Positions 7,237 to 36,594 are shown, counted from the first letter of the stretch. The stretch is 64,000 nt of DNA from Peptococcaceae bacterium UBA5318 (GCA_002408285.1 DHRG01000013.1:4536-68535), one strand, 5' to 3'. Notes: a model not told the origin generated them from the letters alone. Program-made: numbers and translations.

Positions 7237-7253
7237 TCATTGACAATTTTGCG
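7237..7253 (+). promoter_or_regulatory. 17-nt motif TCATTGACAATTTTGCG, copy A
   Basis: An identical 17-mer also occurs at 28214-28230 and 36578-36594. All three copies lie in 5' intergenic regions of island operons. Confidence 0.5.
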
Positions 7254-7254
7254 C

Positions 7255-7341
7255 ATAAACAGAGTTCTAACCTTCAGTGGGAGTTTTAACTCCCCACTGA
7301 AGGTTAGAACTCGTTATCCAGGAACTTAGCGCCGCTTAGCT
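7255..7341 (+). repeat. Structured intergenic repeat, copy 1 (short form, 87 nt)
   Basis: ATAAACAGAGTTCTAACCTTCAGTGGGAGTTTTAACTCCCCACTGAAGGTTAGAACTCGTTATCCAGGAACTTAGCGCCGCTTAGCTATCGGATA aligns with copies at 12042-12251 and, inverted, at 28050-28182. Confidence 0.85.
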
Positions 7342-7452
7342 ATCGGATAAAAAAACCTTTAAGAATTCTTAAAGGTTTTTGCCGTCCTATCTTTCTATGT
7401 GCCCTTTATTCTCCGGGTGAAAAAAGGAGCCTGCGCGTAGAGTGGACTGTCT

Positions 7453-8358
7453 TTATCCGCTGTATTTGTCCGCCTCGGAAAGAGGATAATCCTGATACCT
7501 TGCCTGCGCAGCCAGGGCCTTGCCGTCGGCCTGATGCGCTTTGCGGAACTTGGAAGGGGTGCATCCAAAGTTTAGTTTAAAATGCTTGATCAGATATTTC
7601 GGGTCGGAAAACCCGCATTCCATGGCGATGTCCATAATGCGTCTATCGCTGCTTAAAAGCAGCTTGGCCGCACGTTCTATCCTGCTGTAATACAACAATT
7701 CCTGAAAAGTGAAGCCGAACTTGTTTTTAATATCGTGACTCAGGTGGTGCAGGCTGACCTCAATCTCCGCGGCCAGTTCTTTAAGCCCAAGAGTCCGGTC
7801 GCAATTTTTGTTCGAATACAGAGCGATTTGTTTAAGCCTTTCTACCTGCCTTTCCTCAAAGGCTACCGTTCCATATCCCCAACGCAAAAGATCAAAGTTG
7901 TAGGTAAGATAATGGAGCATGGCCGTCACAAGGTTTTCAATATTTTTATGATGCCCCGCCTGAGGTTTGGCCTTTAAGGCCTCGATCAGCCGGGCCACAT
8001 ATCCCTTTAATTTTTTATACCTGTCGGGGGCCTTGGTCTCATGGTAGCTCGAGCAGCAGTAGAGAAACAAATACCTGTCGCCCAGGAGTTTCCGGTAGAA
8101 GCCGGAGTCGATTTGCATAATCAGGATTTGATTATCCTGCCGGCTTTTGACGATGCGGTGCAGCTCATTCATGTTAATGACGGCCAGATCGTTTTCATGC
8201 AAGAGAAGTTCGTCGTTACCCAAACTGATATGGACCGACCCTTTAAAGACCTGGACAATTTCCAGGGCTTCATGCCAGTGGTAGGGATATTCCTCCACAG
8301 ACCTGACGAAGGCCCTGACCGGCAGTTTATCCACGAATTCAATTATCTCCGGGCGCAT
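7453..8358 (-). CDS. AraC family transcriptional regulator (cupin plus HTH); paralog 2
   Basis: It is collinear with the 6253..7179 product, for example MRPEIIEF...YPYHWHEALEIVQVFKG against MRPEVITF...YPYHWHSALEIVYVLQG. Both share the tail ...GFSDPKYLIKHFKL..CTPS.FRK...DG.ALA.QARY.DYPL.EA. Confidence 0.85.
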   Translation of the reverse strand: MRPEIIEFVDKLPVRAFVRSVEEYPYHWHEALEIVQVFKGSVHISLGNDELLLHENDLAVINMNELHRIVKSRQDNQILIMQIDSGFYRKLLGDRYLFLYCCSSYHETKAPDRYKKLKGYVARLIEALKAKPQAGHHKNIENLVTAMLHYLTYNFDLLRWGYGTVAFEERQVERLKQIALYSNKNCDRTLGLKELAAEIEVSLHHLSHDIKNKFGFTFQELLYYSRIERAAKLLLSSDRRIMDIAMECGFSDPKYLIKHFKLNFGCTPSKFRKAHQADGKALAAQARYQDYPLSEADKYSG

Positions 8359-8526
8359 CTCCTCACCACCACCCGGCTGCCTCGCCTAAGGCGGCGCGCA
8401 GCGGAAAAATTCAAGATTGCGACATTTTAACTGTATCTATTATAATATTATATCCTTAAAACAGGAAAAACTGAATCCGAAAATCAACCGCTCACCCTGC
8501 CAGGGAGAGGAGGGTCTTGCCCTTGG

Positions 8527-8563
8527 GACAAAAATGCCGGCCTTGACCGTGGTCAAGGCCGGC
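8527..8563 (-). terminator. Rho-independent terminator downstream of the FecR-domain gene
   Basis: The GCCGGCCTTGACC/GGTCAAGGCCGGC inverted repeat is followed on the minus strand by ATTTTTG. Confidence 0.55.
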
Positions 8564-8637
8564 ACCTTCGTTGGCAGCGGTGAAACACGCCCAAAGCGTC
8601 GACCAGTCTGTCAATGAAGTAGCGAAAGAGCCGGGCT

Positions 8638-10467
8638 TCACGTAATCGGTATAAATATAAACTCGATAAGGTCTATCGGCTCTTCTCCCGGTCCTGGTAT
8701 GACGTTTATGGTGAAGCCGTCTTCCACACTTAAAGAACTTTCCTCAGGGATGGTGATCTGAAAGGTCACTTCTCCCTGTTCGTTCGTTGTGTTTTGCAGA
8801 GGAACACATTCATGACAGTCACCAGGCTCGTAAATACTACCGTCTATTGTATAGGTATACTCAGCTTCAGGAGCGGCGGCCCAGGTTTGAATCTCCAGAT
8901 AGAATTGGTGTCCCCCGATGGGGTTGCCGTAGCGGTCCCGTGCCGTCACCGTTATTGTGCTGGTCCGGTCGGGCTCCAGCAGCGATCCGACCGCCACGCC
9001 GCACTCAACCGGCTCCAAGGGGCCGGGCAGGATCACCTGCTCTACCTGGGAGGTTTCGTAGCCCGCCGCTTCCACCAGCACCGTCAGGGTCCCGGCTTTC
9101 TGCAAGCAGAGGCGCCCCTCGCCGGGCTCTCCGGGATACAAAGTAAGGCAGCCGCCAGACCCGTCCTCCATATTCTCTAAAACATAGTCTTCATCCTCGT
9201 CAAGTTCGAGTTCGCCCGCCAACTCGCTGTGACTGACTTTGACGCCTGTAACGGACTCCACCCACGCTTCGTCATAGGCAAAAGTTATTTCCAGTACATT
9301 GCCCGCCTCGTTCTCAGTGGTGTCGGCTGTCAGCGTGGCGGCCGGCAGCAGGGCAGCAACCCACTTGGCGTAAATGGTGATGTCGGCGGTGATCAGGGTA
9401 TTGGCAAAGTCAAATTCCGTCGTAAAGGCAATATCCGTATACCAGCCGGTAAAGGTATGCCCTGCCTTGGCCGGATCGGCCGGCCGGCCGGCTTTGCCGT
9501 TATTGTTCACAAGCTGGCTGGCGACCCCGCTTCCGCCGTCTACCTCAAAGCTTACAGTGAAGACGGGGGAAGGGGGCGGGCTGTCGTCTCCGCTTCCGCT
9601 GTCGTCCGTTCCGGAGTTGTCTTGCTGCACGTTTGAATCATACTCGATCAGGGGTTCAGGGTCTTCTTCCTCCTCTTCCTCCAACTGGCCGGCTTCTTCT
9701 CTTTTTTCCTCCATGACCTCATCCAGTTGTTCCAGGAAGCCGGGGTCAAAGGAGGCGGGGTCTGTCGCCGCCAGCTCTTTGATGATCTCCAGGACAAAAA
9801 GATCCAGGGAGCGGAGGGTAACTTCCTGGATGGGCACGGCATCAGGATCGCCGATGGTCCCCTTGGTCTCGATCTGCTGCTGCTGATCCAGGAGCAGTTC
9901 CACTTCCACTTGCCGGTAGCCGCCGCCGGGTTCCGGGATGTTTACGGTGGCGGACACATAGGCGGAACCGGCCAAGACGCTGTAAACTGTCTTGTCGCCC
10001 ACCTGGGAAACGTAGATTTTGGTGCCCCGGGCGCCCATTACGGCCGTGGACGTTTTGATTTCAAACCGGGAGCCGGAGGTCAGCTTTTTCTTGAGATCGG
10101 ACCAGATGCCGCCCGCCCAGAGACTGAAGCCGGACCTCTCTTCCTCTCCATCGGCCGACTCTACCAGTTCGCTGATGAGCAGGTTGGAATTTTCGGCGAT
10201 TTTTACGACCTTTTCCGCGCCGTCTATTTCCAGTGTCAGCGTAGAATTTTTGGCTGTGATGATCCGGTCCCCCTGCACCAGGCCCATGCCTTGAAAAGCG
10301 GGAAAAACCTTTTCTCCGCCGGCTTTCATGATCTTCACTTCACCGCTGAATTCGGCGATTCGCGCTACCCGCAAGGTTTCCCCGGCGTAAACCACGGCGG
10401 CCGTGGCCAGCAGCAGGAAACCCGTGATGATTGCCGCCGCCGCATACAAGCGCCCTTTCGCAGCCAT
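8638..10467 (-). CDS. Secreted or membrane-anchored multidomain protein: FecR domain, acidic linker, Listeria-Bacteroides (Flg_new) repeat, Ig-like (Big_1-like) domain
   Basis: An N-terminal TM/signal (LYAAAAIITGFLLLATAAVVYA) is followed by a FecR-like segment (GEVKIMKAGGEKVFPAFQGMGLVQGDRIITAKNSTLTLE). After an EEEEEED linker come GHTFTGWYTDIAFTTEFDF...ITIYAKW and ITVTARDRYGNPIGGHQFYLE. I prefer the start at 10467 (GGGGG ribosome-binding site). Confidence 0.7.
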   Translation of the reverse strand: MAAKGRLYAAAAIITGFLLLATAAVVYAGETLRVARIAEFSGEVKIMKAGGEKVFPAFQGMGLVQGDRIITAKNSTLTLEIDGAEKVVKIAENSNLLISELVESADGEEERSGFSLWAGGIWSDLKKKLTSGSRFEIKTSTAVMGARGTKIYVSQVGDKTVYSVLAGSAYVSATVNIPEPGGGYRQVEVELLLDQQQQIETKGTIGDPDAVPIQEVTLRSLDLFVLEIIKELAATDPASFDPGFLEQLDEVMEEKREEAGQLEEEEEEDPEPLIEYDSNVQQDNSGTDDSGSGDDSPPPSPVFTVSFEVDGGSGVASQLVNNNGKAGRPADPAKAGHTFTGWYTDIAFTTEFDFANTLITADITIYAKWVAALLPAATLTADTTENEAGNVLEITFAYDEAWVESVTGVKVSHSELAGELELDEDEDYVLENMEDGSGGCLTLYPGEPGEGRLCLQKAGTLTVLVEAAGYETSQVEQVILPGPLEPVECGVAVGSLLEPDRTSTITVTARDRYGNPIGGHQFYLEIQTWAAAPEAEYTYTIDGSIYEPGDCHECVPLQNTTNEQGEVTFQITIPEESSLSVEDGFTINVIPGPGEEPIDLIEFIFIPIT

Positions 10468-10492
10468 CTGCCGACCCCCTTTCAATTTCAAT

Positions 10493-11992
10493 TTATTGAT
10501 CACGGCTCTTTAGGAAAACCGCCCGCTCTTGTTCCACCCATTCCACCTGAAAACCCATGCGCTCGGCCAGGTAACGCAGGGGGATCATGGAGCGGTTCTC
10601 CCTGATTGTCAGGTAGGGCGCAGCAAAAGCCTGTTCCAGGGCCCCTTTTTTCACGATAGCCTTATGTTCATGAGGCAGCCACTGCACCTGGCCGCCCAGT
10701 TTCTCGCCGAGGGCCCGGAGAGGCAGGATGACCCGCCCCTGCTCGATATAGGGTTCCGCATCGGGGAAGGGCAACAGTTCTCCGTCCAGCCATACCCGGA
10801 TCCTTTCGGCAGCGGGGGCCGGGGTTAAAAGGCGGGGGAGGTTGTAGGGATCAAGGGGCAGAGCGCGCAAACCATTGTTCCACATGTCGGAAATATAGAG
10901 AACGCCATCATGATAGAGGAGATCCACAGGACCGTTCAGCATGGACGTGGAGGTCTCCGCGGTCCGGCCGGCTCTGCCGGTGCCGGCGATGGTGATTGCC
11001 TCGCCCTGGGGCGTCAGCGCTCTGACCCTGTGGTTCCAGGTATCGGCGATAAAGATGACGCCGTTGGGCGCAAGGTCTATTCCTTTGGGGAAATTAAACC
11101 TGGCCTCGGCCCAGGCGCCGTCCCGGTAGGCCCCCGGCGCATAATCGGTCTCCTCTTCCCTTAGATCCCGGAAACCGGCCAGTGTGGAAACCTGCAGGTC
11201 TTGGATTTTTCTGACCAACTGGTTGCCGCTGTCCAACACATAAAGCGCCCCGTTTCCGGCCAGGGCAAGCCCGGCCGGTTCGTTGAACCGAGCCCCGCCG
11301 ACCGGACCGTCCCGGTAGCCTCCGTTGGGGCCCGCTTGGCCGGCCAAGGTAGATACAAGTCCTTGGGGCGTTATTTTCCGGATCACATTGTTCAGGGTGT
11401 CGGAAACATAGAGATTGTCGTGTTCATCGATGGCCAACCCAGAAGGCGCGTTGAACCGGGCCTGGTTCCCCGTGCCGTCTTGATAGCCCGGCCGGCCGTT
11501 CCCCGCAAAAGTGCTGACTCTGCCGCCGGAAATTTTGCGGATGGCGTGGTTGCCGGTATCCGCCACATAAATCGTGTTGGCGGAATCCACGACTATACCC
11601 CGGGGATTTCTGAAACGGGCCTTTTCCGCCGCTCCGTCTACATACCCGCCGGCCGGAAACCCAAAAGCGTCAAAACTGTCGGAAAAGCCGGCCACCGTGG
11701 TAACCTGGTCGCCCGCAATCTTCCTGATCCGGTTATTGTGGGAATCTGCCACGATGATCTGGTTGTCCTTGTTGGCAGTCAGGCCGTAGGGAAAGCGGAA
11801 ATCCGCTTCCAGCCTGCTTCCGTCCTGGTAGCCAAATTCCCCGGAGCCCGCATAGAAGGTGGGGACAGAGCCGGAGGCCGGAAGGGAGAAGCCCGTCAAT
11901 ACCGCGATGAGCAGGAAAAGGGCCGGCCAGATGAATCTGCCGGGGGCAGCGCGGCGGAACCGGGCCTTGGGCAAGGGCTGGGCCGATGGCAT
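10493..11992 (-). CDS. NHL-repeat beta-propeller protein with a C-terminal copper-amine-oxidase-N-terminal-like (stalk) domain
   Basis: Six repeats of the type ADSHNNRIRKI / ADTGNHAIRKI / SDTLNNVIRKI / LDSGNQLVRKI / ADTWNHRVRAL / SDMWNNGLRAL are present. The C-terminus reads ILPLRALGEKLGGQVQW...MIPLRYLAERMGFQVEW. The start is at 11992 (GGGAGG 8 nt upstream). The track start at 12043 lies inside the repeat element. Confidence 0.8.
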   Translation of the reverse strand: MPSAQPLPKARFRRAAPGRFIWPALFLLIAVLTGFSLPASGSVPTFYAGSGEFGYQDGSRLEADFRFPYGLTANKDNQIIVADSHNNRIRKIAGDQVTTVAGFSDSFDAFGFPAGGYVDGAAEKARFRNPRGIVVDSANTIYVADTGNHAIRKISGGRVSTFAGNGRPGYQDGTGNQARFNAPSGLAIDEHDNLYVSDTLNNVIRKITPQGLVSTLAGQAGPNGGYRDGPVGGARFNEPAGLALAGNGALYVLDSGNQLVRKIQDLQVSTLAGFRDLREEETDYAPGAYRDGAWAEARFNFPKGIDLAPNGVIFIADTWNHRVRALTPQGEAITIAGTGRAGRTAETSTSMLNGPVDLLYHDGVLYISDMWNNGLRALPLDPYNLPRLLTPAPAAERIRVWLDGELLPFPDAEPYIEQGRVILPLRALGEKLGGQVQWLPHEHKAIVKKGALEQAFAAPYLTIRENRSMIPLRYLAERMGFQVEWVEQERAVFLKSRDQ

Positions 11993-12041
11993 ATGGCATT
12001 CCTCCCTGAAAAATTTACCGCAAAAGCGTGATCGTCCGTTC

Positions 12042-12251
12042 ATAAACAGAGTTCTTAGCTTCAGTGGGAGTTTTAACTCCCCACTGAAGGTTAGCCGCTC
12101 TCGGACATCCGTGTCCTCCGCGGCATTAGGCCGTCCGTGGCCGTTAGAAATCGTTATCCAGGAGCTTAGCGCCGCTTATCTCCCGCTTTTGGGTTATAGC
12201 TTCCAGCTCCAGAAAGAAGTGGGAGTATTAGCGACGGTTAGCTATCGGATA
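12042..12251 (+). repeat. Structured intergenic repeat, copy 2 (long form, 210 nt)
   Basis: It shares both termini and the hairpin core with copies 1 and 3 and carries about 50 nt of extra internal GC-rich sequence. Its right end (TTAGCTATCGGATAG) supplies the last codons and the stop of the MBL gene. Confidence 0.85.
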
Positions 12252-13092
12252 GAGAAAGGATCATTCCTTCCTTGGCCGCTAAACATTGAGGGAAGCGGGC
12301 CCGAGCCAATTGTTCGATCTCATCAAGTTCCTGATCGCTTCTCCGGGGGCTGTGGTGAAATAAGATAAGCCTCCCCACGCCCGCTTGGCCGGCCAGTTTA
12401 ACAGCCTCCTGCCAGGTTGAGTGCCCCCAGCCTTTTTGAGCGGGGCGTCCCGCCTGCCCCAGATACTCCTCGTCGGTGTAGGTGGCGTCGTAGATCAGCA
12501 GGTCGCAGTCCCGGCAGAACTCCGCTAAGTTTTTATCCGTCACGGCATGATGCTCATGGTCGCCAAGATAACAGACGGAATGTCCGTTAAGCTGCAGGCG
12601 GTAAGCGGTGTTTCCCATGGGATGGTTGGTGGGGGCGGTTTTGACCGTTATTCCCCCCTCCAGGCCGAACTCCTGCCCTGCCTCTATTTCCCGGAAAACC
12701 ACCTCTGCCTTCATTTGTTCTAGTCCAATGGGGAAGAAGGGGGCCTGCATCTGCCTGGCGAAGAGTTCCGTCAGGGGAAAACCCGGTTTGCCTTCCCCAT
12801 AAACAGTGAAATGGTTCCCCCGGACAAAGGCCGGCTCAAAAAAGGGAAACCCGTGAATATGGTCCCAATGGACATGGGAAATGAGGAGATGGGCTTTTGC
12901 CGCACCGGTCCTTTCCATCCATTCTTGGCCGAGATTGCAGAGCCCTGTCCCCGCGTCAAAAATCACCTGGGTTGCTCCTGCCTGCACCTGGATGCAGGCG
13001 GTATTCCCGCCATATTTCAGGGTGTTTTTGCCGGGAACCGGTCTGGAACCCCTTACCCCCCAAAAGGTGACGGAGATTTGCACCGGGTTCAT
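12238..13092 (-). CDS. MBL-fold metallo-hydrolase (possible cyclic-nucleotide phosphodiesterase)
   Basis: The metal-binding motif HLLISHVHWDHIHGFPFF is followed by ...YLGDHEH..., ...DATYTDEEY... and ...WGHST... The phosphodiesterase role is inferred only from the adjacent cyclase gene. Confidence 0.75.
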   Translation of the reverse strand: MNPVQISVTFWGVRGSRPVPGKNTLKYGGNTACIQVQAGATQVIFDAGTGLCNLGQEWMERTGAAKAHLLISHVHWDHIHGFPFFEPAFVRGNHFTVYGEGKPGFPLTELFARQMQAPFFPIGLEQMKAEVVFREIEAGQEFGLEGGITVKTAPTNHPMGNTAYRLQLNGHSVCYLGDHEHHAVTDKNLAEFCRDCDLLIYDATYTDEEYLGQAGRPAQKGWGHSTWQEAVKLAGQAGVGRLILFHHSPRRSDQELDEIEQLARARFPQCLAAKEGMILSLSDS

Positions 13093-13187
13093 CCCTGCTC
13101 CCTCCTCGCTATAAAGTGAATCCCTATGCGGAGAGCGGTTTAAGCTCCTCCGCCTATTATTGGTTTGAGCTAATCCCGGAGCGCCGG

Positions 13188-15032
13188 TTAATCTTCGGGC
13201 AAAATTCCCTCCAACTGGTAGACGGCCAGCCGCTGGCTCTTGCCTTTCACCGTTATTTCGCCGAGGCCGCTAACTTTTACCTGTTCTTTCACCCGTTCGT
13301 AAGTGGACTGGCTTAAGAGGATTTGCCCCGGCTTGGCATTGCTTTCCAGCCTGGCGGCGGTGTTGACCGTATCGCCGATGGCCGTATAATCCATGCGGAA
13401 CTGGGCCCCGATATTGCCGACGATGGCTTCGCCCGTATTGATGCCCACGCCGAAATCAACGGTGCGGCCGTATTTTGCCAGCAGCCGCTCCTTCATCTGT
13501 GCGCTCCCTTCCTGCATGACCCAGGCCGCCTGCGCCGCTTTCAGGGCATGGTCGGGCAAGTCAAGGGGCGCGTTGAACAGGGCCATGGCGGCGTCGCCGA
13601 TAAACTTATCCAGGGTCCCGCCATAGGCAAAGATGGCCCGGGCGCAAAGGTCCAGGTATTCATTGAGGACTTCTACAACTTCTTCGGGTTCGGCCTTTTC
13701 GGAAAAAGGCGTAAAACCACGAATGTCCGCAAACAGGACGGTTATTTCCCGACGCACCCCGCCCAGCTTGAGGCCGGCTTCGCCGGAGGTCAGGATTTCC
13801 TTGACCACCTGGGGCGCCACGTAGCGTCCGAAAACCGCGGTAACACGTTTGCGTTCCAGCAATTCTTCCAGGTAGTGATAAAAGAGGCCCAGCAGATAGC
13901 AGGCAACGGCCAGCCCCACCGGGTAGAGGAGGGACAACAGCCAACCTTTTTGATAGAGCAGCCTGGCCGTTGCTCCATAGCCGAGGATCAGGGCGGCGGC
14001 CACAAAGACAGCCCGCCCCGGGCTTAATTTGCGCAAGGCCCAGATGCTGACGCCGGTAAAAAGCAGCAGGACGGCCAGGATGGACCAATAGGGCGCCTGC
14101 TGTTTAAAGTCGCGGTATAACAGGTTCTGAATAATGTTGGCATGTATTTCTACGCCAAACATGGCGGTCTGGTGGTCCAGCGGCGTGGGATAGGAATCGT
14201 GGAGGCCGACGGCATAAGGCCCCACCAGGACGATCTTGTCTTCAAAATAGGCCGGAGGGATTTCGCCGTTCAAGACCTGGTAAAAGGAGAAGCGTTCATA
14301 ATCGCCGGGTCTTCCCTGGTAATTGATATGGATCCTGTTCCAGGGATCCGTGGGCACAAGGTCCGGGGAATAAGCCTGTCCCCTTGTCTGTAAATAGGCG
14401 TTGGCGATTTTCCAGGCAAAACTGGGGATGGTTTCTTCCTGGTAATCGTAAAAAAGAACCGTCTTTCGCACCACGCTGTCGGGGTCCGGGAAGGTATTGA
14501 CGTGCCCGCTGAGGGCCTGCGCCTTAAGCAGCGGTACGGCTTCCTTCAGGTCGGCGGGCTGCAGCTTGCTTCCGGTCCGGACTGTTCCGCTGAAATAACC
14601 CACCGCGGGCAAGACGGTATTTTCGGTTTTATCCAGGGCTTGGGCCAAGGCCAGATCCTCAGCCGGCTGGGGGTCCGGTTCGGAAAACAGGATGTCGATT
14701 CCCACCGCCGCAGGTTTCCCCTGCGCCAGCTTTTCCAGAAGTTCGGCATGGGTGCTGCGCGGCCACGGCCACCTGCCCAGTTTTTCCAGGCTGGGCTCAT
14801 CGGCGGCAATAATGACGATCCGGCTGTCCACCCGGCCTTTGCCCTGATAGAGCCAGTCCTGGGCCATATTGTCCATATTCTCCCCCACATTGGCATAGGA
14901 GAGGATGGCGAAAACAAGAAAGGCGACTGCCAGCAAGAAGGATAATTTTATTTTCAAAGGGGTTCCTGCCTTTCTCCGGCAATTTAAAAAACATGTTCCC
15001 ATTATCCTACCATTTTTTTCAGGACTTTTCAT
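13188..15032 (-). CDS. CHASE2 sensor domain-containing class III adenylate/guanylate cyclase
   Basis: The order is an N-terminal TM, a periplasmic CHASE2-like region (RIVIIAADEPSLEKLGRWPWPRSTHAELL...), three TM helices, then a cyclase domain: VTVLFADIRGFTPFSEK...GGTLDKFIGDAAMALFNAP...FGVGINTGEAIVGNIG...YTAIGDTVNTAARLES. The start could be the internal ATG at 15002. Confidence 0.85.
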   Translation of the reverse strand: MKSPEKNGRIMGTCFLNCRRKAGTPLKIKLSFLLAVAFLVFAILSYANVGENMDNMAQDWLYQGKGRVDSRIVIIAADEPSLEKLGRWPWPRSTHAELLEKLAQGKPAAVGIDILFSEPDPQPAEDLALAQALDKTENTVLPAVGYFSGTVRTGSKLQPADLKEAVPLLKAQALSGHVNTFPDPDSVVRKTVLFYDYQEETIPSFAWKIANAYLQTRGQAYSPDLVPTDPWNRIHINYQGRPGDYERFSFYQVLNGEIPPAYFEDKIVLVGPYAVGLHDSYPTPLDHQTAMFGVEIHANIIQNLLYRDFKQQAPYWSILAVLLLFTGVSIWALRKLSPGRAVFVAAALILGYGATARLLYQKGWLLSLLYPVGLAVACYLLGLFYHYLEELLERKRVTAVFGRYVAPQVVKEILTSGEAGLKLGGVRREITVLFADIRGFTPFSEKAEPEEVVEVLNEYLDLCARAIFAYGGTLDKFIGDAAMALFNAPLDLPDHALKAAQAAWVMQEGSAQMKERLLAKYGRTVDFGVGINTGEAIVGNIGAQFRMDYTAIGDTVNTAARLESNAKPGQILLSQSTYERVKEQVKVSGLGEITVKGKSQRLAVYQLEGILPED

Positions 15033-15062
15033 TGACTATTTTGTTGTGTTCAAGCCATCTCT

Positions 15063-16709
15063 TTACTCCTGGTTTGGCAACCTGTATTTTTTCGGCCCAT
15101 AATGGAAGGCTTCGGTCGGGATGGCCACGCCGCAGGCTCTCAACTGCTGGGCCCGGGAAACAACGGCAGCCCCTTCCAACAGGTTGAAGGCGATTTGAGC
15201 GACGGTGCGGTTCCCTGGGTCCTCCAGGAAAGAGCCCTTGGTCCAGGCATTAAAAGCCCCCATGGCCGGCCCGCAAAAAATCTGATAATCAAGCTCCCGC
15301 CCTTTTTCTCCGGTAATGGCCCATTGGCTGGCCTTTCCCAAATACCAGCGAAACACCAGGGCCATTTTATGCCTGGGGTCCCTGGCGGCCCGCTGGAGCT
15401 GGCCGGGGTCCCTTTCTTGAAAAAAGCGGGCCGTCTCCTCCCATATTTTCTCCCAAGAGTCCCTGAACACGGTGGCCTCCACCTTCCGGCGAATATCCGC
15501 GGGTATTTGCTCCAGGGAGGAATAGCGCCGATAGAGGTCATACAACTGCGCGGCCCGGGGAGCAAACAGGGCGCCCAGCTTGAGCACCTGCACCTTGGCG
15601 CCTTGCTCGAACATATCCGCCGACGGGGCCATGGCCACGTCACTGATGTCCGCTTGGGCCAGCAGGGCTTTCCCCGCCTGGGAAAGACCGGATTCCACAG
15701 CGGCCTGATGGATCGTCCCTACCACGATATAAGCGGCGCCGTGCGCAAAGGCCGCCGCCGCCGCCGCAGGCGTGCCGATCCCGCCGGCCGCACCCACACG
15801 GATAGGACGGCGGTATGAAAAACGCCGCATGCACGCCTCCCTGGCCTGCAATACCGTGGGGAAAAGCGCCCCCAGGGGCCGATTGTCCGTATGGCCGCCG
15901 GAATCCGCTTCCACGGTAATATCTTCCGCCAGCGCGATTTGGGCAGCGCATTGGGCCTCCGCAGGGGATAGTTTGCCCTGCTCCACCAACTGCTCCAGCA
16001 GCCTGGCCGGCGGCGGGGACATAAACTGCCCGGCCAGCTCGGGCCTGGAGATTTTGGCGAAAAGGTAATGCTTCCTGTGGATGGCGCCCTGGGCATCGCG
16101 CCATAAGCCCTTGGCCGCATACCTGACCAGAGCGGGGGTGATCCCCAGGAAGGCTGAGGCCGAAAGGCGCAAGACGTTGTAATGCAGAAACAGATCAACC
16201 AGCAATTCTTCCCTTTGCGGCTCCTGGGGGGAATGGATCAGGTTGATGCCCCAGGATTTGTCCCCCGCGCCCTGTTGGATGACCTGAATAGCTCGCTCCA
16301 CCCGCGGCAGGGGCAAGCCGGCCGCGCCGAAAAAGCCCAGCAGATGGCGCCTGGCCATTTCCAGGACCATTTCTTCCGAGGCAATGCCATGGGCCATTTC
16401 ACCGCCGATATAGGGGAATTGGACCCCGTGCACCTCCTGAAAGCTGCGGTCCCCCAGCCACTCGGGATATTGGGGCGCCAATACGGCCAGCACCGGATAG
16501 CTCTGGGGAGCGGCGGACTCAGGCCGGGCAGGGGCGAAATGCCCGCCGACGGCCATGCCGACCGCTCCGCTCCCTTCGTCTCTGATCACATAGGTTTGTT
16601 GTCTGATATCCTTGAGCAGCCCGCCTGTTTCCCAGGGGAAAAAAGCCGGCTTCCTGTCGCCTTCAAGCCAAAAACCAATGGTGGGACGGCTTGTATCTGC
16701 CTGACGCAT
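15063..16709 (-). CDS. pfaD: PfaD-family trans-acting enoyl reductase (nitronate monooxygenase fold) of a PUFA-synthase-like PKS
   Basis: The product is 548 aa. It has a PfaD-like N-terminus (IGFWLEGDRKPAFFPWETGG...YVIRDEGSGAVGMAVGG) and a TIM-barrel FMN region (...GMAHGIASEEMV..., ...ITVEADSGGHTDNRP..., ...RVGAAGGIGTPAAAAAAFAHGAAYIVVGT...). Confidence 0.85.
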   Translation of the reverse strand: MRQADTSRPTIGFWLEGDRKPAFFPWETGGLLKDIRQQTYVIRDEGSGAVGMAVGGHFAPARPESAAPQSYPVLAVLAPQYPEWLGDRSFQEVHGVQFPYIGGEMAHGIASEEMVLEMARRHLLGFFGAAGLPLPRVERAIQVIQQGAGDKSWGINLIHSPQEPQREELLVDLFLHYNVLRLSASAFLGITPALVRYAAKGLWRDAQGAIHRKHYLFAKISRPELAGQFMSPPPARLLEQLVEQGKLSPAEAQCAAQIALAEDITVEADSGGHTDNRPLGALFPTVLQAREACMRRFSYRRPIRVGAAGGIGTPAAAAAAFAHGAAYIVVGTIHQAAVESGLSQAGKALLAQADISDVAMAPSADMFEQGAKVQVLKLGALFAPRAAQLYDLYRRYSSLEQIPADIRRKVEATVFRDSWEKIWEETARFFQERDPGQLQRAARDPRHKMALVFRWYLGKASQWAITGEKGRELDYQIFCGPAMGAFNAWTKGSFLEDPGNRTVAQIAFNLLEGAAVVSRAQQLRACGVAIPTEAFHYGPKKYRLPNQE

Positions 16710-17052
16710 CGCTTATCGTTCCTTTCTGAAAATCCCGGTAATCCCGGTGCCAGTCCAGGAAGCAAAAGGGCTTCATTTCACCCTTGACCACCAAGGCGGC
16801 CAGGAAATCCTTCCCGACCAGCCAAGACGCCCTCTCCCCCCGGTGCTCCGGTTCATTTTCCCAATAAATAACCCTCCCTTTCAGCAAGAGGATGCGGTAG
16901 GCCGCAGCCCTTTCCTGTTCCCGCTCATCCAAAATCTCTTCCCAGGGTTCGCCGGGTTCACTAACCTGGTCCAAATTCGCCGACCACAGATGGATGGCCC
17001 GCTCCAGCCCCTTGGCGTCAATCCTTCCCTTGCTCTGTACTTCTTTACTCAC
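16663..17052 (-). CDS. Hypothetical 129-aa protein with faint resemblance to the N-terminal half of an Sfp-type phosphopantetheinyl transferase
   Basis: IHLWSANLDQVSEPGEPWEEILDEREQERAAAYR recalls the vhvW...L...E..Ra..f opening of Sfp/PfaE PPTases. It is only about half the length of one. It overlaps the pfaD start by 47 nt. Confidence 0.3.
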   Translation of the reverse strand: MSKEVQSKGRIDAKGLERAIHLWSANLDQVSEPGEPWEEILDEREQERAAAYRILLLKGRVIYWENEPEHRGERASWLVGKDFLAALVVKGEMKPFCFLDWHRDYRDFQKGTISDASGRYKPSHHWFLA

Positions 17053-17119
17053 TGAAATTCACCCCTCTCCCCTTGCTCTTTTCCAGGGGGGCGCCCCTCC
17101 TCCCCTGCGCTTCTCCATC

Positions 17120-19564: not shown

Positions 19565-20483
19565 CAAGATTCGCCTCCCTATCCTTTCGGGCTTGGCGGC
19601 CAACAGCCTCTCCCGCCAATACCTTCACCTCATAACCCTTTTCGGTCTGCAGCAGGATATCTTCATCAACCGCAGCCGTCCCTTTCTCCAAAAACAGCAG
19701 GATGGTCGAGCCGCCCAGCTTGAAGTAGCCTTTTTCCTCTCCCCTGGCAACGATGGCGTCCGGCCGATAGATTTGCACGATGGAACCCACAAAAGCGGCG
19801 CCGATCTCCACGTAGGCGATGTCCCGGAAGTTCGCGGACCGCAGGATGCTGACTGCCCTCTTGTTCCGGCAAAAAAGCGCCGGGATGGCCTGCAAGGCCA
19901 GGGGATTCACGGAATAGTAACAGCCTTTGAGGCCTTTGCTGGCGGTGCACCTTCCGCTGTCGATGAAATGGAAGCGATGGTAGTCGGCCAGCCCAAGGCG
20001 CAAGGCCAGGCATACCCCGCCTTGATACTTGCGGGCCAGCCCCCTGTCCCCCAGAAGCTCTTCCAGGGTGTAAGAAAAACCTTTGACCTGGATCACGCGC
20101 TCAATGTCGATATTGGCCCAGGCCCGCATCTTCCCGTCCCCGGGCGATACGAGGAGACGGGGATCCGCCGCAAACTTGCGGGCTTCCGGTTTGAGCTTCC
20201 GGGCAAAGAAGGCGTTAAAATTGGGGAAATCTTGGGGCTCCTGGAGGCACTCCGACAGATCGAGGCCGTGCTCTTCCGCAAAGCCTTTGATTTTACGGGC
20301 GCTGAAGGGAAAATCATGCAGCTTGCCAAGGATAAAGGGGTAAATCTTCCGTTTCAACAGCAGTTCAAGCCCCAGCCGGCCCAGGGCCGTATGGTAGATG
20401 CGCCTGATCGCCTCTTCGCCCGCCACCTTCTCGGTTTCATAGCCCTTCGTTTTTCTGTTGTAAATTTGATAGCTTTTGCTCAT
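19551..20483 (-). CDS. psd: Phosphatidylserine decarboxylase proenzyme
   Basis: Family-typical segments are present: ...FFARKLKPEARKF..., ...LADYHRFHF... and the self-cleavage region GYFKLGGSTILLF. Confidence 0.85.
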   Translation of the reverse strand: MSKSYQIYNRKTKGYETEKVAGEEAIRRIYHTALGRLGLELLLKRKIYPFILGKLHDFPFSARKIKGFAEEHGLDLSECLQEPQDFPNFNAFFARKLKPEARKFAADPRLLVSPGDGKMRAWANIDIERVIQVKGFSYTLEELLGDRGLARKYQGGVCLALRLGLADYHRFHFIDSGRCTASKGLKGCYYSVNPLALQAIPALFCRNKRAVSILRSANFRDIAYVEIGAAFVGSIVQIYRPDAIVARGEEKGYFKLGGSTILLFLEKGTAAVDEDILLQTEKGYEVKVLAGEAVGRQARKDREANLDEFL

Positions 20484-25800: not shown

Positions 25801-27136
25801 TGCCGGCGATGGCGCCCTCCCGTATTTTCAGGCACTTCATATCCTGCCCGCCGATATCCAGGATGAAATCAACCCCGGGCAGAAATTTGCGGGCGGCCTT
25901 GTAGTGGGCGATGGTTTCTACCACGCCGAGATCGAGGCCCAGGGCGGTTTTCAACAGCCCTTCCCCATAGCCTGTTACCGCCGAATTGGCGATGACCGCC
26001 TGTGCCGGCAGACGCCGGTAGATCTGGCCCAGGATTTCCCGGGCTTTCTCCAAAGGCCTTCCTTCATGATTGGCGTAGTAGGAATAGCGTATCTCCTCTT
26101 CTTCATCGATCAGCACGGCTTTGATGGTGGTAGAGCCCGCGTCGATTCCCAGAAAGCAGCGGCCTTGCCAAGGGCCCTGCTCCTTGGTCTTCCCTGTTGC
26201 AGCCTGATGCCTCCTGTAAAAATCGGCTTTCTCCTGCTGATCCCTGAACAAGGGTGTCAGCCGCTTAACCTCCTCGGCCTCCATCTCGCCTGTGGACAAC
26301 ACTTTTTCCCGGAAAGCCGCAAAAGGCCTGCTTGCTTCCCCGCCGGCCGCCAGGGCCGCCCCGGCGGCCGCCAAAACAAGGGAATTCTCGGGCAGAATAG
26401 CAGCCTGCTCCGCCAGGCGCAAGGTTTCCTTGAATCTTTGCCGCAGGGCGGGCAAATAGGTAAGGGGGCCGCCCAAAAACAGCACCTTGCCTTGGATGGG
26501 CTTGCCGCAGGAAAGGCCGCTGACAATCTGGTTGACCACCGCCTGCAAAACGGAGGCGGCGATATCCTCCCTGCCGACGCCCTCGTTGATCAGCGGCAGG
26601 ATGTCCGTCTTGGCGAACACACCGCAACGGGAGGCGATGGGGTAGATGGTCGTATACCCGGCGGCAAGCTTGTCAAGGCCTGCCGGGTCCGTGTTCAGCA
26701 GCGCGGCCATCTGGTCGATGAAAGCCCCGGTCCCCCCGGCACAGATCCCGTTCATTCTCTGGTCGATGCCCGTTTTTTCAAAATAAAGGATTTTAGCGTC
26801 TTCGCCCCCCAGTTCAATAGCTACGTCCGCTTTTTCCCCGAGGGTCCTCAGGGCCTTGGCGGTGGCCGCCACTTCCTGGACATAGGCGGCTTCCAGCCAG
26901 CGGGCCAGGAGCACGCCCCCGGAACCCGTGAGGGCGAGGGTGATGTCCGCCCCCCCCAGGGCCGGCGTGGCTTGCTCCACCAACTCCGCCAGGGTCTCTT
27001 TTATCCTGGAAAAATGCCGCCTGTAGCTGCCGTACAAAAGCGTCTTGCCCTCCAACGCCACCAGTTTTATGGTAGTGGAGCCTATATCCAGCCCCACCTG
27101 CAACAATCTTTTTTCTTTGCCCATGCCCTTTACCAT
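22877..27136 (-). CDS. 1419-aa fused BCR/HAD-family protein: two BcrAD/BadFG-type activase ATPase domains plus 2-hydroxyacyl-CoA-dehydratase-like domains (PlsA/PlsR- or Ger-like candidate)
   Basis: There are two acetate/sugar-kinase-fold ATPase modules ([15 protein letters not shown]... and [15 protein letters not shown]...). A Cys-rich segment follows ([27 protein letters not shown]). The C-terminal half is HgdB/D-component-like and ends ...[38 protein letters not shown]. Confidence 0.8.
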
Positions 27137-32915: not shown

Positions 32916-35900
32916 CTAGTTTTTTTTTACCCGTTGCTCTAAAAAGGCGATTATTTCCTTTAAGGTATGTAAAGCGAGCGGAAGGGAATTGTCCGGGTCG
33001 GGCGGTTCCGCATCCAGCGACTCCGCCAACCTCTCTTGAACTGTCGCCAAGATTTCCACCCGTTTTATCGAGTCGATTCCCAGCCCTGCTTCCAGATCAC
33101 TGTCCAGGTCCAGCAACTCCACAGGATACCCGGTTTTCTCGGAAACTACTTCCAGCACGGTTTCCCGGACGGACAGGGAAGGTTTGCCGCCGTCGCCAGA
33201 GCCCCTCCCCGCAACCGGCTCTTGCCCGGAATACCCGGGAATTTCCGCCGGCAAGGGGGGCGCGGCGCTTTTCCCGGCAATGAGCCCGGCCTGATCAGCA
33301 TGAGCAAGCTCAAGCAAGCTGTGCTCGGCTTGTTGCCATAAGCCCTGCTCCTCTCCGGCCGGCCCGTCCTTTTCAGGGATGGCGGCTGGACGCTGGCCGG
33401 TGAGGGCCGCCAACAGCTTCTCAGAAAAGCCCAAATAGGCCTGATGGCTTTCTGTAAGGGCCTTTTGAAAAGCGAGATGGGCTTCCGTCATTTGCTTTTG
33501 GATCAAGTCCAGGGAAACGGAAGAAACTTCCTGTTCCCGCGTATGTTCTCTCCCGGTTTGCTCTCTTTGCTGGCGCTCCTTTTGATTCATGGTCGATACC
33601 TGCCTGTCTATGGATTTATTTTTTTGGGGGTACGGTTTCCCATAATTGGCGCCATTGATTTTCACGGGGTAAGCCGGTTTTTTCTCATCCCTCGGGTCCT
33701 GCAAGCTGCCGTAACCCGACCACAGGCAGGAATAGTCCAGCTTGACTCCCAGCACCGAAAGGCAAGCCACGGCCTGCAACAGCGAGAGGATGCCGTGCTG
33801 CCCTTTGCCGTCCGTCGCCACCGCCTTGACGTCTTGGCCGGTCAGACATTGCTTGGCCAAGCCGGTCAGCACCCCTCCCGGCCCCACCTCGATAAACAAG
33901 CCCACGCCCTCTCCGGCCATCCGGCCGATCAGCTCGGCAAAGCGGACGGGGTTGGCAATTTGGCGGGCCAGCAGGTCTTTCATGGATTCCGGCTCTTCCG
34001 GATACGGTTTTGCCGCTAAGTTTGCATAAACAGGAACGGCGCTTTTCTGAAAGGCAACACCTTGGAGATATTGCCTGAAAGGCTTTACGGAGGGCTCCAC
34101 CAGGGCGGAGTGAAAGGCCGTGGATACCGGCAGCCGGATAAAAGGCAGGCCTTGTTGTTTGCAGGCGGCTTCCAATTGGCGGATCTCCTCTTCAGGACCT
34201 GATACCACAACTTGCTCAGGGCTATTGATATTGGCGACGACAACGGAAAGGTTTAATCTTTTGAGCAAGGCCTCCGCTTCAGCAGGAGGGAGAAAGACGG
34301 AAGTCATGGCCCCTTTATTCCCGGACGTTTCCTGCATCAATTCCCCGCGTTTTTTCGCGACATGCAGCATCGCGTCCTCAGAAAACACGCCTGCCGCAGC
34401 CAAGGCCGTGATTTCCCCGTAGCTGTGCCCCGCGAGGAGATCGGCTTGCAAACCCAATTGTTTCAGGACCGCTAACAGGGAGAGGCTCATGGCCCCGATG
34501 GCCGGCTGCGCGATACGCGTATCCGTTAAGCAGTCCTCTTGCAGTTTACGGGTTTCCCCGTCAAAAGCCGGCCGGGGGAAGACAAAATCGTGGAGTTTTT
34601 CCCCCTGCGGACCTGCCGCCAGTTCCGCGGCCCGGTCCCACACTTCTCTGGCACAGTCAAAGTGCAGGGCCAGATCCCTGCCCATATTGAGATATTGACT
34701 GCCCTGGCCCGGAAAGAGAAAAGCGATTTTTCCGGTCATCCTTTTTGTTGCATAGTAGATTCCGGCAGACAGGTCCAGGGCCTGCTCCGGTTTTGTTCCG
34801 ATCCGCTCCAAACTTTGTTTTATTTTTGCCGCCAAATCATCGAGGTTGGAAGAAACAAGAGCCAAACGGTAGGCCCTCTCCGGATCGTATTGGGCCTGGG
34901 CTTGTTTGGCCAAGGCCACATGCCAGCCGTTCCGGACCGAAGGGGTCCAAGACCCGGAAGGGCAGGCGGAAATTTCCTCCAGCAAGCCCTGTCCCTGCCG
35001 GAGCAATTCTTCCGGTGAACGGCCGGCCAAGAGAAAGAGCTCGTAGGGCATGGTTCTGAGTTTGGCGGGACGGTTCCCCGGTTTCCGATATTCCTCCAAA
35101 GTCACATGAAAGTTGCTGCCGCCAAAACCAAAAGCGCTGACAGCCGCCCTTCTGGGATGGTCCAGGCCTCTGATCCAGGGCCTGCTCTGGGTATTCAGAT
35201 AAAAAGGGCTATCCTCTATCTTCAGGTTGGGGTTGGGTTGGTCTACTTTGATTGTGGCGGGCAGCACCTGGTGGTGCAAAGCCATCACGGCTTTAAACAG
35301 CCCCACCGCGCCGGCTGCCGCCTTGGTGTGCCCAATTTGCGATTTAATGCTTCCCAAGGCGCACCACTGCTTTTTTCCCTCCCCTGGAAAAACCCTCGCC
35401 AATCCGGCAAATTCAGCGGCATCACCGGCTCTTGTTCCCGTACCGTGGGCTTCCACCAGTTCAACCGTGTCCGGTCCATACCCGGCCGCCTCATATGCCC
35501 TTCTTACGGCCAGGACTTGTCCTTCGGCCCGGGGGGCATAGATGCTTTTCGCTCTTCCGTCGGAGGAGGACCCCAGGCCTGTGATCACGGCATAGATGGG
35601 ATCACCGTCTTTTTCCGCGTCGGCCAGCCTTTTTAAGGCCACCATGGCGATCCCCTCCCCCAGCACCGTCCCGTCCGCCTGCCGGGAAAAAGGCCGGCAG
35701 TCCCCAGTGGGGGACAGGGCCAGGATGTTGCTGAAACACAGGTACATGAAAATGTCGTTTTGCGTATCCGCTCCGCCCGTAATGACCAAATCGGCCTTGC
35801 CCGACTGGAGTTCCAGGATAGCCATGGAAACGGCGCATAACGAGCTGCCGCAAGCCGCATCAACGATGGTGTTCGTCCCTTGTAAATCGAAGTGATTGGC

Positions 35901-36515
35901 AATGCGCCCAGCCACCACACTTCCCAACAGCCCGGGGAAAGAGCTTTCCCGCCAGGGCAGGTGGTTGCCGGCAATCCGGTCGCAAACCTCCTCTATCTTC
36001 TGCTCCGGCAGCCCGCTTTCTCTCAGCCCTTGCGCCCAAAGGGACCTTTGCACACTGCTGCCCAAATGGATGGCAAGCTCCGTACCGGAAGTCACGCCCA
36101 GGATAACGCTGGTTTTTTCTTTGTTCAGGTTTTTAAATTGGAAGCGGCAAGCCTCCTCCAGAACTCTTTGGGCCACGACTAAGGCTAAAAGCTGGCAAGT
36201 ATCCGTCGCCTTTAAATTATGGGGCGGAATGGCAAACTCCAGGGGATCAAAAACTATGTCCGGGAGAAAGGCGCCCCTTTTGCAATAGGTTTTATCGGGA
36301 GCCGCGGGATCAGGATGATAGTAATCGTCTATCAGCCAGTGAGAGCAGGGAACATCCGTGATGAGGTCCTTTCCTTCAAGAATGTTTTTCCAGCAAGCTC
36401 CCCGGTTGTCTCCTCCGGGCAATAAAGCGCTGATCCCCACAACGGCGATGGGTTGACAAGGTTCCACCAGGATTTTCACCTTCCTCCGGTCGGTTATGCC
36501 TGATTGGTCCAGCAC
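32916..36515 (-). CDS. PfaA-like type I PKS/FAS: ketosynthase - acyltransferase - single acyl carrier protein
   Basis: The KS shows TIVDAACGSSL, EAHGTGT and IGHTKAAAG, plus the Pfa-type segment SHWLIDDYYHPDPAAPDKTYCKRGAFLP. The AT shows FPGQGSQY, LAGHSYGE and TAFHS. The ACP shows [16 protein letters not shown]. Confidence 0.9.
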   Translation of the reverse strand: MLDQSGITDRRKVKILVEPCQPIAVVGISALLPGGDNRGACWKNILEGKDLITDVPCSHWLIDDYYHPDPAAPDKTYCKRGAFLPDIVFDPLEFAIPPHNLKATDTCQLLALVVAQRVLEEACRFQFKNLNKEKTSVILGVTSGTELAIHLGSSVQRSLWAQGLRESGLPEQKIEEVCDRIAGNHLPWRESSFPGLLGSVVAGRIANHFDLQGTNTIVDAACGSSLCAVSMAILELQSGKADLVITGGADTQNDIFMYLCFSNILALSPTGDCRPFSRQADGTVLGEGIAMVALKRLADAEKDGDPIYAVITGLGSSSDGRAKSIYAPRAEGQVLAVRRAYEAAGYGPDTVELVEAHGTGTRAGDAAEFAGLARVFPGEGKKQWCALGSIKSQIGHTKAAAGAVGLFKAVMALHHQVLPATIKVDQPNPNLKIEDSPFYLNTQSRPWIRGLDHPRRAAVSAFGFGGSNFHVTLEEYRKPGNRPAKLRTMPYELFLLAGRSPEELLRQGQGLLEEISACPSGSWTPSVRNGWHVALAKQAQAQYDPERAYRLALVSSNLDDLAAKIKQSLERIGTKPEQALDLSAGIYYATKRMTGKIAFLFPGQGSQYLNMGRDLALHFDCAREVWDRAAELAAGPQGEKLHDFVFPRPAFDGETRKLQEDCLTDTRIAQPAIGAMSLSLLAVLKQLGLQADLLAGHSYGEITALAAAGVFSEDAMLHVAKKRGELMQETSGNKGAMTSVFLPPAEAEALLKRLNLSVVVANINSPEQVVVSGPEEEIRQLEAACKQQGLPFIRLPVSTAFHSALVEPSVKPFRQYLQGVAFQKSAVPVYANLAAKPYPEEPESMKDLLARQIANPVRFAELIGRMAGEGVGLFIEVGPGGVLTGLAKQCLTGQDVKAVATDGKGQHGILSLLQAVACLSVLGVKLDYSCLWSGYGSLQDPRDEKKPAYPVKINGANYGKPYPQKNKSIDRQVSTMNQKERQQREQTGREHTREQEVSSVSLDLIQKQMTEAHLAFQKALTESHQAYLGFSEKLLAALTGQRPAAIPEKDGPAGEEQGLWQQAEHSLLELAHADQAGLIAGKSAAPPLPAEIPGYSGQEPVAGRGSGDGGKPSLSVRETVLEVVSEKTGYPVELLDLDSDLEAGLGIDSIKRVEILATVQERLAESLDAEPPDPDNSLPLALHTLKEIIAFLEQRVKKN

Positions 36516-36577
36516 AACCTGCCCTAAAGATGGAATTTTTCACATTGCCTTTATTTTATTTTCTTTGCCCCAAAATT

Positions 36578-36594
36578 TCATTGACAATTTTGCG
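36578..36594 (+). promoter_or_regulatory. 17-nt motif TCATTGACAATTTTGCG, copy C
   Basis: It lies about 63 nt upstream of the PKS gene start, on the opposite strand. Confidence 0.5.

Follow-up and report, generated by a model that had tools for sequence, protein, structure and literature searches.

A conserved 17-mer in the promoters of a Peptococcaceae lipid island as the candidate operator of an uncharacterised AraC/XylS subfamily

Background

At the araBAD promoter of Escherichia coli, the AraC protein combines a cupin sensor with a double helix-turn-helix (HTH) domain and binds at araI1-I2, where the promoter-proximal site reaches into the -35 region of a sigma-70-type promoter; a site is also present at the gene of the regulator. 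Here we describe an element of comparable position, the 17-mer TCATTGACAATTTTGCG, in a 64,000 nt stretch of DNA from Peptococcaceae bacterium UBA5318 (GCA_002408285.1 DHRG01000013.1:4536-68535; this whole stretch is called the window, and positions are counted from its first letter). The 17-mer lies in a high-GC lipid island that also encodes two paralogous regulators, AraC1 and AraC2, and it is probably the operator of the uncharacterised AraC/XylS subfamily to which these two belong.

The proposed mode of action is that of class II AraC-family promoters such as araBAD, rhaBAD and the marbox promoters. From the araBAD system the island differs in several respects. AraC works with DNA looping and a pair of 17-bp half-sites in direct repeat, whereas the island has one conserved site of 17–20 bp; the operator sequences are unrelated, the NCBIfam model for AraC stays far below its cut-off, and the hosts are anaerobic Bacillota. 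E. coli RhaS and RhaR resemble the island pair in being tandem AraC-family paralogs with sites overlapping -35 and possibly a hierarchy, one paralog controlling the other as well as the structural genes. RhaS and RhaR each have their own two-half-site operator, and their genes rhaSR form a single operon; the island paralogs, in contrast, have near-identical recognition helices, a terminator between their genes and an operator only at the second gene. With the class II marbox of MarA, SoxS and Rob the island shares a single asymmetric site of ~20 bp over -35 that would be contacted by one double-HTH domain. Yet MarA and SoxS are without a sensor or dimerisation domain, whereas the island proteins have a cupin; the sequences are unrelated, and the SoxS and Rob models score only weakly against AraC2.

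In gene content the island is similar to the pfa-type "secondary lipid" clusters, which are like polyunsaturated fatty acid (PUFA) synthases, in that it has a PfaA-like KS-AT-ACP protein, a KR-DH protein, a DH-acyltransferase and a PfaD-like enoyl reductase. Unlike these clusters it adds cdsA, pssA, psd, a PlsA-like BcrAD/DUF2229 protein, a B12-radical SAM protein, a cyclase and an ABC exporter that may be gated by cyclic nucleotide monophosphates (cNMP). Clusters of the pfa type with uncharacterised products were surveyed in anaerobes by Shulse and Allen 2011 (PMC3098273); in the text of this article covered by a word search no regulator is mentioned, and both matches to "arac" belong to the word arachidonic.

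Results and Discussion

The 17-mer stands at a fixed distance from -10 boxes on the minus strand

An earlier note on this DNA had pointed to three exact copies of the 17-mer on the plus strand, and a scan of the window bears out their coordinates and orientation: 7237–7253 (copy A), 28214–28230 (copy B) and 36578–36594 (copy C). A fourth copy with three mismatches to the 17-mer, D, is found at 15029–15045, where the minus strand reads AACAAAATAGTCAATGA. In dinucleotide-preserving shuffles of the window 0.23 matches are expected at up to three mismatches, and four matches were reached in none of 100 shuffles. All four copies are located within the high-GC island (~6.2–36.6 kb), and the flanking core genome within the window, 34 kb in all, has not a single site.

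The genes adjoining all four copies are encoded on the minus strand, on which the 17-mer reads CGCAAAATTGTCAATGA. On this strand each of the four copies is followed, after exactly 19 nt, by a -10-like hexamer of the type TAnnAT, namely TACAAT at copies A and B, TAAAAT at C and TAGGAT at D. The hexamers located 17 nt upstream of these boxes (ATGAAT, ATGATT, ATGAAA) match a -35 element in only two to three of six positions, and they are nothing else than the 3' end of the conserved 17-mer block. Because the -35 hexamers are poor and form part of the conserved operator, these promoters look activator-dependent. If the -10 box is set at -12 to -7, the 17-mer comes to lie at about -48 to -32 of the predicted starts and overlaps the -35 position. 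In class II activation the site of the factor overlaps a weak or absent -35 element and is centred near -41. Judged by this geometry, the position of the 17-mer is that of a class II activator site in putative minus-strand promoters of the sigma-A type that lack a good -35.

The absence of a -10 hexamer 16–19 nt past the TTGACA, on which the earlier note had remarked, holds for the plus strand at copies A, B and C, and likewise no consistent box was found at related sites read in this direction; on the minus strand, however, every copy has its -10 box. A plus-strand reading of TTGACA as a -35 element was therefore rejected and the minus strand favoured. The statement that the 17-mer is not simply a sigma-A promoter has to be recast accordingly, as the 17-mer belongs to sigma-A-like promoters, on the other strand and with the -10 box at a fixed distance. 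The GTTT that follows copies B and C, also noticed before and present in the sequence, corresponds on the other strand to AAC. Since AAC precedes most of the sites found elsewhere, the element is about 20 bp long.

Two further readings of the block were tried. A sigma-54 promoter of the -24/-12 type does not fit the spacing of motif and box. The boxes of FapR, FabT, Rex, Fur, CcpA, CodY, Spo0A and SpoIIID, in the form that we take to be their consensus, show partial likeness at best (8/9 for SpoIIID, 5/7 for Spo0A). A literature search with the sequence of the 17-mer returned solely unrelated primers and satellites.

The copies are unchanged in a 90%-identical relative

A close relative (ENA scaffold L131/L134, also L083; loci from other genomes carry L numbers throughout) is ~90% identical to the window over the whole island. 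Copies A, B and C are unchanged in it, with 0/51 substitutions, whereas 34/189 of the remaining intergenic positions in the alignment differ (one-sided Fisher test, p = 1.5e-4). The spacer before the -10 box has changed in sequence but still measures 19 nt. The -10 box of AraC1 is identical in the relative, operator B is found exact at L134 9884 and operator C is kept in L083/L134. By this measure the 17-mer behaves as a selected cis-regulatory site under purifying selection.

A 27-bp near-palindrome, CGCAAAATTGTCAATGAAAATTTTGCG (L134 1392–1418), is formed in the relative by operator C together with the first part of its spacer; it is not found at other sites. A palindrome of the CRP/FNR type was considered for the whole set and rejected: the symmetric core has only 4+4 positions (ATTGnCAAT), the spacing of the A4...T4 flanks varies between 10 and 14 nt, and the longer palindrome exists solely at the relative's copy C.

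The same relative clarifies the structured repeat that lies beside two of the copies. This hairpin-rich element is present at 7255–7343, between the AraC2 terminator and operator A, at 28050–28187, immediately past the -10 box of the cdsA promoter, and a third time at 12041–12251. The distances given earlier for its ATAAACAGAG end are correct: copy A is 1 nt away from it, and copy B, in inverse orientation, 31 nt. The relative, though, has clean gaps of 89 nt (A) and 138 nt (B) in place of the repeat, so that operator A directly follows the AraC2 terminator and the cdsA leader directly follows the -10 box. The association of motif and repeat suggested in the earlier note thus stems from two insertions that the relative does not have. 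Because it is missing at orthologous places, the structured repeat is a separate small insertion element; it looks like a small mobile one that landed in AT-rich promoter DNA. It contains an internal 20-bp perfect hairpin; its junctions are AT-rich (TA/ATA), and its ends allow more than one placement. The copy at B adds a second TACAAT 8 nt downstream and should be transcribed at the start of the 5' leader of the cdsA operon. At the gathering score, Rfam has no family over the structured repeat or the 5' regions; its matches in the window all lie outside the island.

AraC1 and AraC2 belong to a rare, uncharacterised subfamily

AraC1 (308 aa; 6253–7179, minus strand) and AraC2 (301 aa; 7453–8358, minus strand) are 52% identical and have the same domains, an N-terminal cupin (AraC_binding) and a C-terminal HTH_18. 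The double helix-turn-helix PF12833 is matched with 1.6e-19 by AraC1 and 2.3e-21 by AraC2, the cupin PF02311 with 1.1e-12 and 1.1e-7, all above the cut-offs. Judged by these domains the two proteins are regulators of the AraC/XylS family, and of a subfamily that is uncharacterised. No curated NCBIfam model (AraC, RhaS, RhaR, MelR, Btr, AryK and others) reached its cut-off, the best being AryK with 73–95 bits against 850, and the closest solved structures are generic AraC-type DNA-binding domains only. The first recognition helices of the two paralogs read SLYHLSHDIKDKFG and SLHHLSHDIKNKFG; the second helix, SDPKYLIKHFKL, is identical. Across the subfamily the recognition helices are among the most conserved segments, in keeping with an operator that stays nearly constant from genus to genus. 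The cupin domains have a conserved YPYHWH motif.

The upstream regions of the two genes differ. AraC2 is without an operator of its own; two TATAAT boxes stand upstream of it, and elsewhere AraC2-like genes closely follow other genes. A weak resemblance to the motif had been proposed at 8412–8430, upstream of AraC2. This stretch, which lies downstream of the two TATAAT boxes, is not a site, as it fails the motif scan even at 4 mismatches in 17, and the relative has no site at up to 4 mismatches upstream of the AraC2 ortholog. A terminator hairpin follows AraC2 at ~7351–7380. Such a hairpin is found between the two AraC genes in the window, in the relative, in Pelotomaculum and in Geosporobacter, and the tandem pair itself is kept in L121, L127, L128, L131 and L140.

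The operator recurs at AraC-subfamily genes in loci fetched without the motif

Loci were fetched through homologs of AraC1 or CdsA and only then scanned for the 17-mer. The AraC1 subfamily is rare, with 117 homolog clusters at E<=1e-20, and those with a name are mostly from Pelotomaculum, Desulfotomaculaceae, Desulfitobacteriia, Geosporobacter, Desulfosporosinus, Sporotomaculum and Calidifontibacillus. In Pelotomaculum terephthalicicum JT (L128) the same lipid island is followed by a tandem AraC pair, and CGCAAAATCGTCAATGA-N19-TACAAT, with one mismatch, stands directly upstream of the second AraC gene. Geosporobacter ferrireducens (L121; complete genome CP017269.1) has a tandem pair with CGCAAAATTGTCAATGC-N19-TAAAAT, again with one mismatch, upstream of the second gene, and another site precedes the gene of a giant Big/Cu_amine_oxidN1 protein. 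A more distant site, with four mismatches, N19 and TAAAGT, precedes the second gene of the pair in L127, and a Desulfotomaculaceae metagenome-assembled genome (MAG; L138) has a two-mismatch site with N19 and a TA-type -10 box directly upstream of its AraC gene. The single AraC gene of Calidifontibacillus oryziterrae (L139) is followed, just past its terminator, by a two-mismatch site with N19 and a TA-type box upstream of a gene for a giant aBig_2/Flg_new/SLH protein. Sites at the AraC1 ortholog are also present in L131 and in L075, the latter a locus found with the motif.

In L140 the tandem pair has diverged (46–49% identity), and here a variant operator, CTTAAAAGTGTCAATGC, stands upstream of the second AraC gene and of the adjacent aBig_2/SLH surface-protein gene. 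That the variant operator travels with a diverged AraC pair is, at the level of sequence, co-variation. Taken together, a site is present at the AraC-subfamily gene or its neighbour in 8/9 genomes, a count that includes the window and the 90% relative and leaves out L136. The latter locus, which was reached via CdsA and whose 15.9 kb show no AraC gene, has the lipid island (CdsA 56% identical) and a one-mismatch site with N19 and TAAAAT upstream of the FabA-FabA-acyltransferase (DH-acyltransferase) gene.

Among the loci examined no other regulator gene is consistently linked to the sites. A MalT/LuxR-type protein was considered as cognate factor and dismissed, as it is near the sites in L121 and L131 and absent from L128 and from the searched parts of the window. 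A literature search on Pelotomaculum, PUFA synthase and AraC gave nothing relevant.

Sites found by searching for the motif itself

In 596 Gb, with one representative genome per species, the exact 17-mer occurs in 112 single matches, which is roughly the chance level; nearly all of them lie in coding sequence, as codons for RKIVNE/D. Intergenic exact matches with the architecture motif-N18/19-TAnAAT are those in L011, L057, L075 and L083, from MAGs of Bacillota/Desulfitobacteriia. Of the three sites in L075, one immediately precedes a truncated AraC1-like gene whose first codons are the same, MRPE. When the architecture was used as a pattern in a metagenome scan, seven loci were returned, one of which (L117) is clearly related; its two sites, each with N19 and a -10 box, flank the remnant of an AraC1-like gene. 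Matches found by motif lie within 1.5 kb of AraC-subfamily remnants (L075, L117) or on the contig of a homolog (L011/L125). The question raised earlier whether the motif is confined to the island has a divided answer: within the window it is, while the pair of regulator and operator occurs elsewhere also.

When 17 non-redundant sites are combined into an information-content profile, the invariant core is AAATNGTCAATG, preceded by (A)AC CGC. Apart from the four window sites, 16 sites were tabulated, and these mostly have N19 and a TA-type box; in two the spacer is N18 or N20, and the site at L075 4416 has a weak TAGAGG. Outside the window the operator is followed by genes for giant surface proteins and by small ORFs resembling precursors of ribosomally synthesised and post-translationally modified peptides (RiPPs). 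The domains of these surface proteins are aBig_2, Flg_new, Big_3, SLH and Cu_amine_oxidN1. Beside the AraC genes such an arrangement is seen at L139 10963, L140 10920 and L121 19146, one of them in a member of the Bacillaceae. The sites at L117 8500–10300 precede small ORFs that by eye are like Nif11-type and double-glycine leader peptides, and at L057 1877–2338 (MAG JBMNLH01) the operator-promoter precedes a 107-aa ORF with a nitrile-hydratase-alpha-like domain (NHLP-type by Pfam).

The predicted promoters of the island and their genes

All four operators are read on the minus strand. Operator A, an exact match, occupies about -48 to -32 of the AraC1 promoter, whose -10 box TACAAT lies at 7212–7217 with a predicted start near 7205; AraC1, the candidate operator-binding protein, would itself be under operator A. 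Operator B, also exact, belongs to the putative cdsA operon promoter, with TACAAT at 28189–28194 and a predicted start near 28182, which is now within the inserted repeat. The lipid operon (15063–27972, minus strand; Pfam and NCBIfam) consists of genes that overlap or abut. It is headed by cdsA (27130–27972) and encodes CdsA, the PlsA-like BcrAD/DUF2229 protein of 1419 aa, the B12-radical SAM protein, a CDP-alcohol phosphatidyltransferase (pssA-like), a phosphatidylserine decarboxylase (psd), the DH-acyltransferase, a remnant of a phosphopantetheinyl transferase (PPTase) and the PfaD-like enoyl reductase. L128, L131/L134 and L136 have this block too. Between the DH-acyltransferase and enoyl-reductase genes is a gap of 410 nt (16710–17119), where Pelotomaculum has an intact ACPS/PPTase gene; we take it for the degraded remnant of this gene. 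In the 90% relative the gap measures only 70 nt.

Operator C, the third exact copy, stands 34 nt inside the right boundary of the island, in the putative promoter of the polyketide synthase (PKS) operon. Its -10 box is TAAAAT at 36553–36558 (TAGGAT in the relative), with a predicted start near 36546. The operon (30571–36515, minus strand) encodes the PfaA-like KS-AT-ACP protein (32916–36515, 1199 aa) followed by the KR-DH protein (777 aa). These two ORFs are separated at 32896–32920, at an A9 run, where the window is one base short of the relative, which has a single ORF of 2011 aa; the break may reflect a frameshift, a mistake in the assembly or a genuine split. Operator D lies in the intergenic gap between the enoyl-reductase gene and that of a CHASE2-adenylate/guanylate cyclase (13188–15032, minus strand; Pfam). 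The -10 box TAGGAT is at 15004–15009 and the predicted start near 14997. The listed ATG of the cyclase falls inside operator D, and the true start codon is probably located downstream of it.

The earlier proposal that the motif coordinates PKS, phospholipid and exporter expression is borne out in so far as the PKS and cdsA operons are each preceded by a site. Copy B, however, lies in a divergent gap with its -10 box facing cdsA, and the ABC exporter gene (28341–30515, plus strand) has a canonical promoter of the sigma-A type, TTGACA-18-TAAAAT, at 28287–28316 (plus strand, 11/12 matches). Read in this way the exporter has its own predicted promoter, and nothing places it under the motif promoter. 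The exporter has a C-terminal cyclic-nucleotide-binding domain, also in the relative, and it may be gated by cyclic AMP (cAMP) from the operator-D-linked cyclase.

The island as a unit

Homology to the relative extends only over 6248–36628. It starts 5 nt beyond the stop codon of AraC1 and ends 34 nt beyond operator C. Boundaries placed at AraC1 and operator C make the island a self-contained module with its own regulators and sites. Its GC content is 55–60% compared with 40–47% in the flanks. The flanks themselves differ, with LigD and LysR/phosphonate genes in the relative and DUF2383/ferredoxin genes and skipping-rope RNA/tRNA/serS in the window, which indicates that the island moved or recombined as a unit.

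Neither the 90% relative nor Pelotomaculum terephthalicicum has the block at ~8507–15032 (FecR/Flg_new/Shr-like, NHL/Cu_amine_oxidN1 and metallo-beta-lactamase-fold (MBL) proteins and the CHASE2 cyclase), and in both the AraC pair comes directly after the enoyl-reductase gene; in L136 cyclase, NHL and MBL genes are found upstream of cdsA instead. Just outside the island Rfam finds a skipping-rope RNA (37342–37427), a tRNA (38898–38984) and a T-box (42080–42276), the last as leader upstream of a D-3-phosphoglycerate dehydrogenase gene (40391–42013). Further away are gyrA (43641–46076), a change in the sign of the GC skew near 50–52 kb and three tandem 21-nt units, TAGGTTGTATAGTTTATATTATAGG, at 53179–53245; the region of the replication origin probably falls within the window, at ~15 kb from the island.

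A proposed regulatory circuit and its alternatives

From the promoter architecture, the conservation and the association with the AraC subfamily we consider it probable that the 17-mer is the operator of this uncharacterised AraC/XylS subfamily, that AraC1 and AraC2 are the candidate proteins in the island and that they act as class II activators. A regulator of the subfamily would bind the single asymmetric site of 17–20 bp overlapping -35 and recruit RNA polymerase to give class II activation of sigma-A-dependent transcription; binding, the sign of the effect and the transcription starts are predictions. Proposed targets are the PKS operon, the phospholipid operon with cdsA, the plsA-like gene, pssA and psd, the cyclase gene, and araC1 itself by positive feedback. 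AraC2, with an unrelated promoter of its own and nearly the same helices, could be the primary sensor or a second input on the same site. The earlier idea that the motif is the binding site of an island AraC regulator is thereby kept and sharpened, as the motif is conserved, set at a fixed distance and linked to AraC genes; the strand, the exporter as a target and the site at AraC2 had to be given up.

Several points weigh against this assignment. AraC-family proteins with a cupin or other dimerisation domain usually bind two direct-repeat half-sites ~21 bp apart, and in the profile of the 17 sites no second half-site appears, the upstream part showing merely a T-tract and AAC. The AraC-subfamily gene P0040 (L125), the exception to the 8/9 genomes, has no site nearby; it lies 24 nt behind another gene, and the two sites on its contig are ~50 kb away (L011). 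Around the site of L057 there is no AraC homolog within its 8 kb. Many of the sites outside the window come from the search with the exact 17-mer and are identical by construction, and for the source genome, which is not in the 596-Gb collection as such, the distribution given here covers the window. Finally, a different conserved factor that controls AraC1 would give much the same pattern. Such a factor, for instance a global or developmental regulator of spore-forming Bacillota with AraC1 as a mere target and the AraC proteins binding elsewhere, would agree with a 17-mer that is near-identical across distant genera, with the sites of L057 and L011 outside the immediate neighbourhood of an AraC gene, and with the heterogeneous downstream genes for lipids, surface proteins, small peptide-precursor-like ORFs and TPR proteins. 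We nevertheless regard it as unlikely, as the sites cluster at or next to one rare AraC subfamily, the variant operator of L140 accompanies a diverged AraC pair, the conservation of the AraC helices suffices to account for that of the operator, and no other regulator gene shows a consistent linkage.

There are three further alternatives. The same AraC proteins might bind and repress, covering -35 until a ligand releases them: members of the family can repress, and an occluding repressor could sit just where the site overlaps -35. The hexamers of two to three matches in six within the operator are unlike the strong promoters that need repression, and we give this possibility a small chance. An alternative sigma factor that contacts the block as the -35-side element of a dedicated promoter class would account for the strictly fixed spacing and for the missing canonical -35. 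But a sigma region-4 contact is shorter than the core at about -45 to -34 and lies less far upstream; the box that follows has the housekeeping consensus TAnAAT, and we know of no alternative-sigma -10 element that matches it; no sigma gene is linked (the sole match in the window is a weak Sigma70_r4 in the DUF134 protein at 697–1197) and the association with AraC genes would be left unexplained, which makes this reading very unlikely. That the copies are dispersed fragments of a mobile repeat, or recur by chance, with no regulatory role, is hardly credible. It could appeal to the two copies that abut a genuinely mobile structured repeat and to the ~100 occurrences of the 17-mer expected by chance in the 596 Gb, mostly in genes. 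The relative, however, keeps the 17-mers where the repeat is missing; outside the promoter elements the copies show no homology in their flanks; the copies are under substitution constraint and recur at orthologous promoters in other genera; and the expectation for the window is only the fraction of a match given above. This last reading is effectively refuted.

Within the preferred assignment to the AraC subfamily, a more specific scheme is conceivable but doubtful, namely that the tandem pair forms a two-input switch on one shared single-site operator. The paralogs, with near-identical helices and diverged sensors, would compete for or co-occupy the 20-bp site at -40; AraC2, produced constitutively, would act as the sensor and AraC1 as a feedback amplifier. 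The operator-driven cyclase would feed the cNMP-gated ABC exporter and so constitute a cAMP branch in this genome.

Conclusion

The principle of regulation is not a new one. PUFA-synthase-like, plasmalogen-synthase-like and radical SAM enzymes come together in the island, along with head-group genes, and for this uncharacterised lipid island of strictly anaerobic, syntrophic Bacillota the analysis offers a testable regulatory model with four predicted promoters, their predicted starts and a candidate pair of regulators. A candidate operator for a previously unnamed AraC subfamily may be used for regulon prediction and for the heterologous switching-on of silent clusters. If the two-input switch were true, it would make a portable 30-kb membrane-lipid island self-regulating, and across Bacillota the cassette of regulator and operator would be reused to control surface proteins and peptide natural products in the manner of a plug-in.

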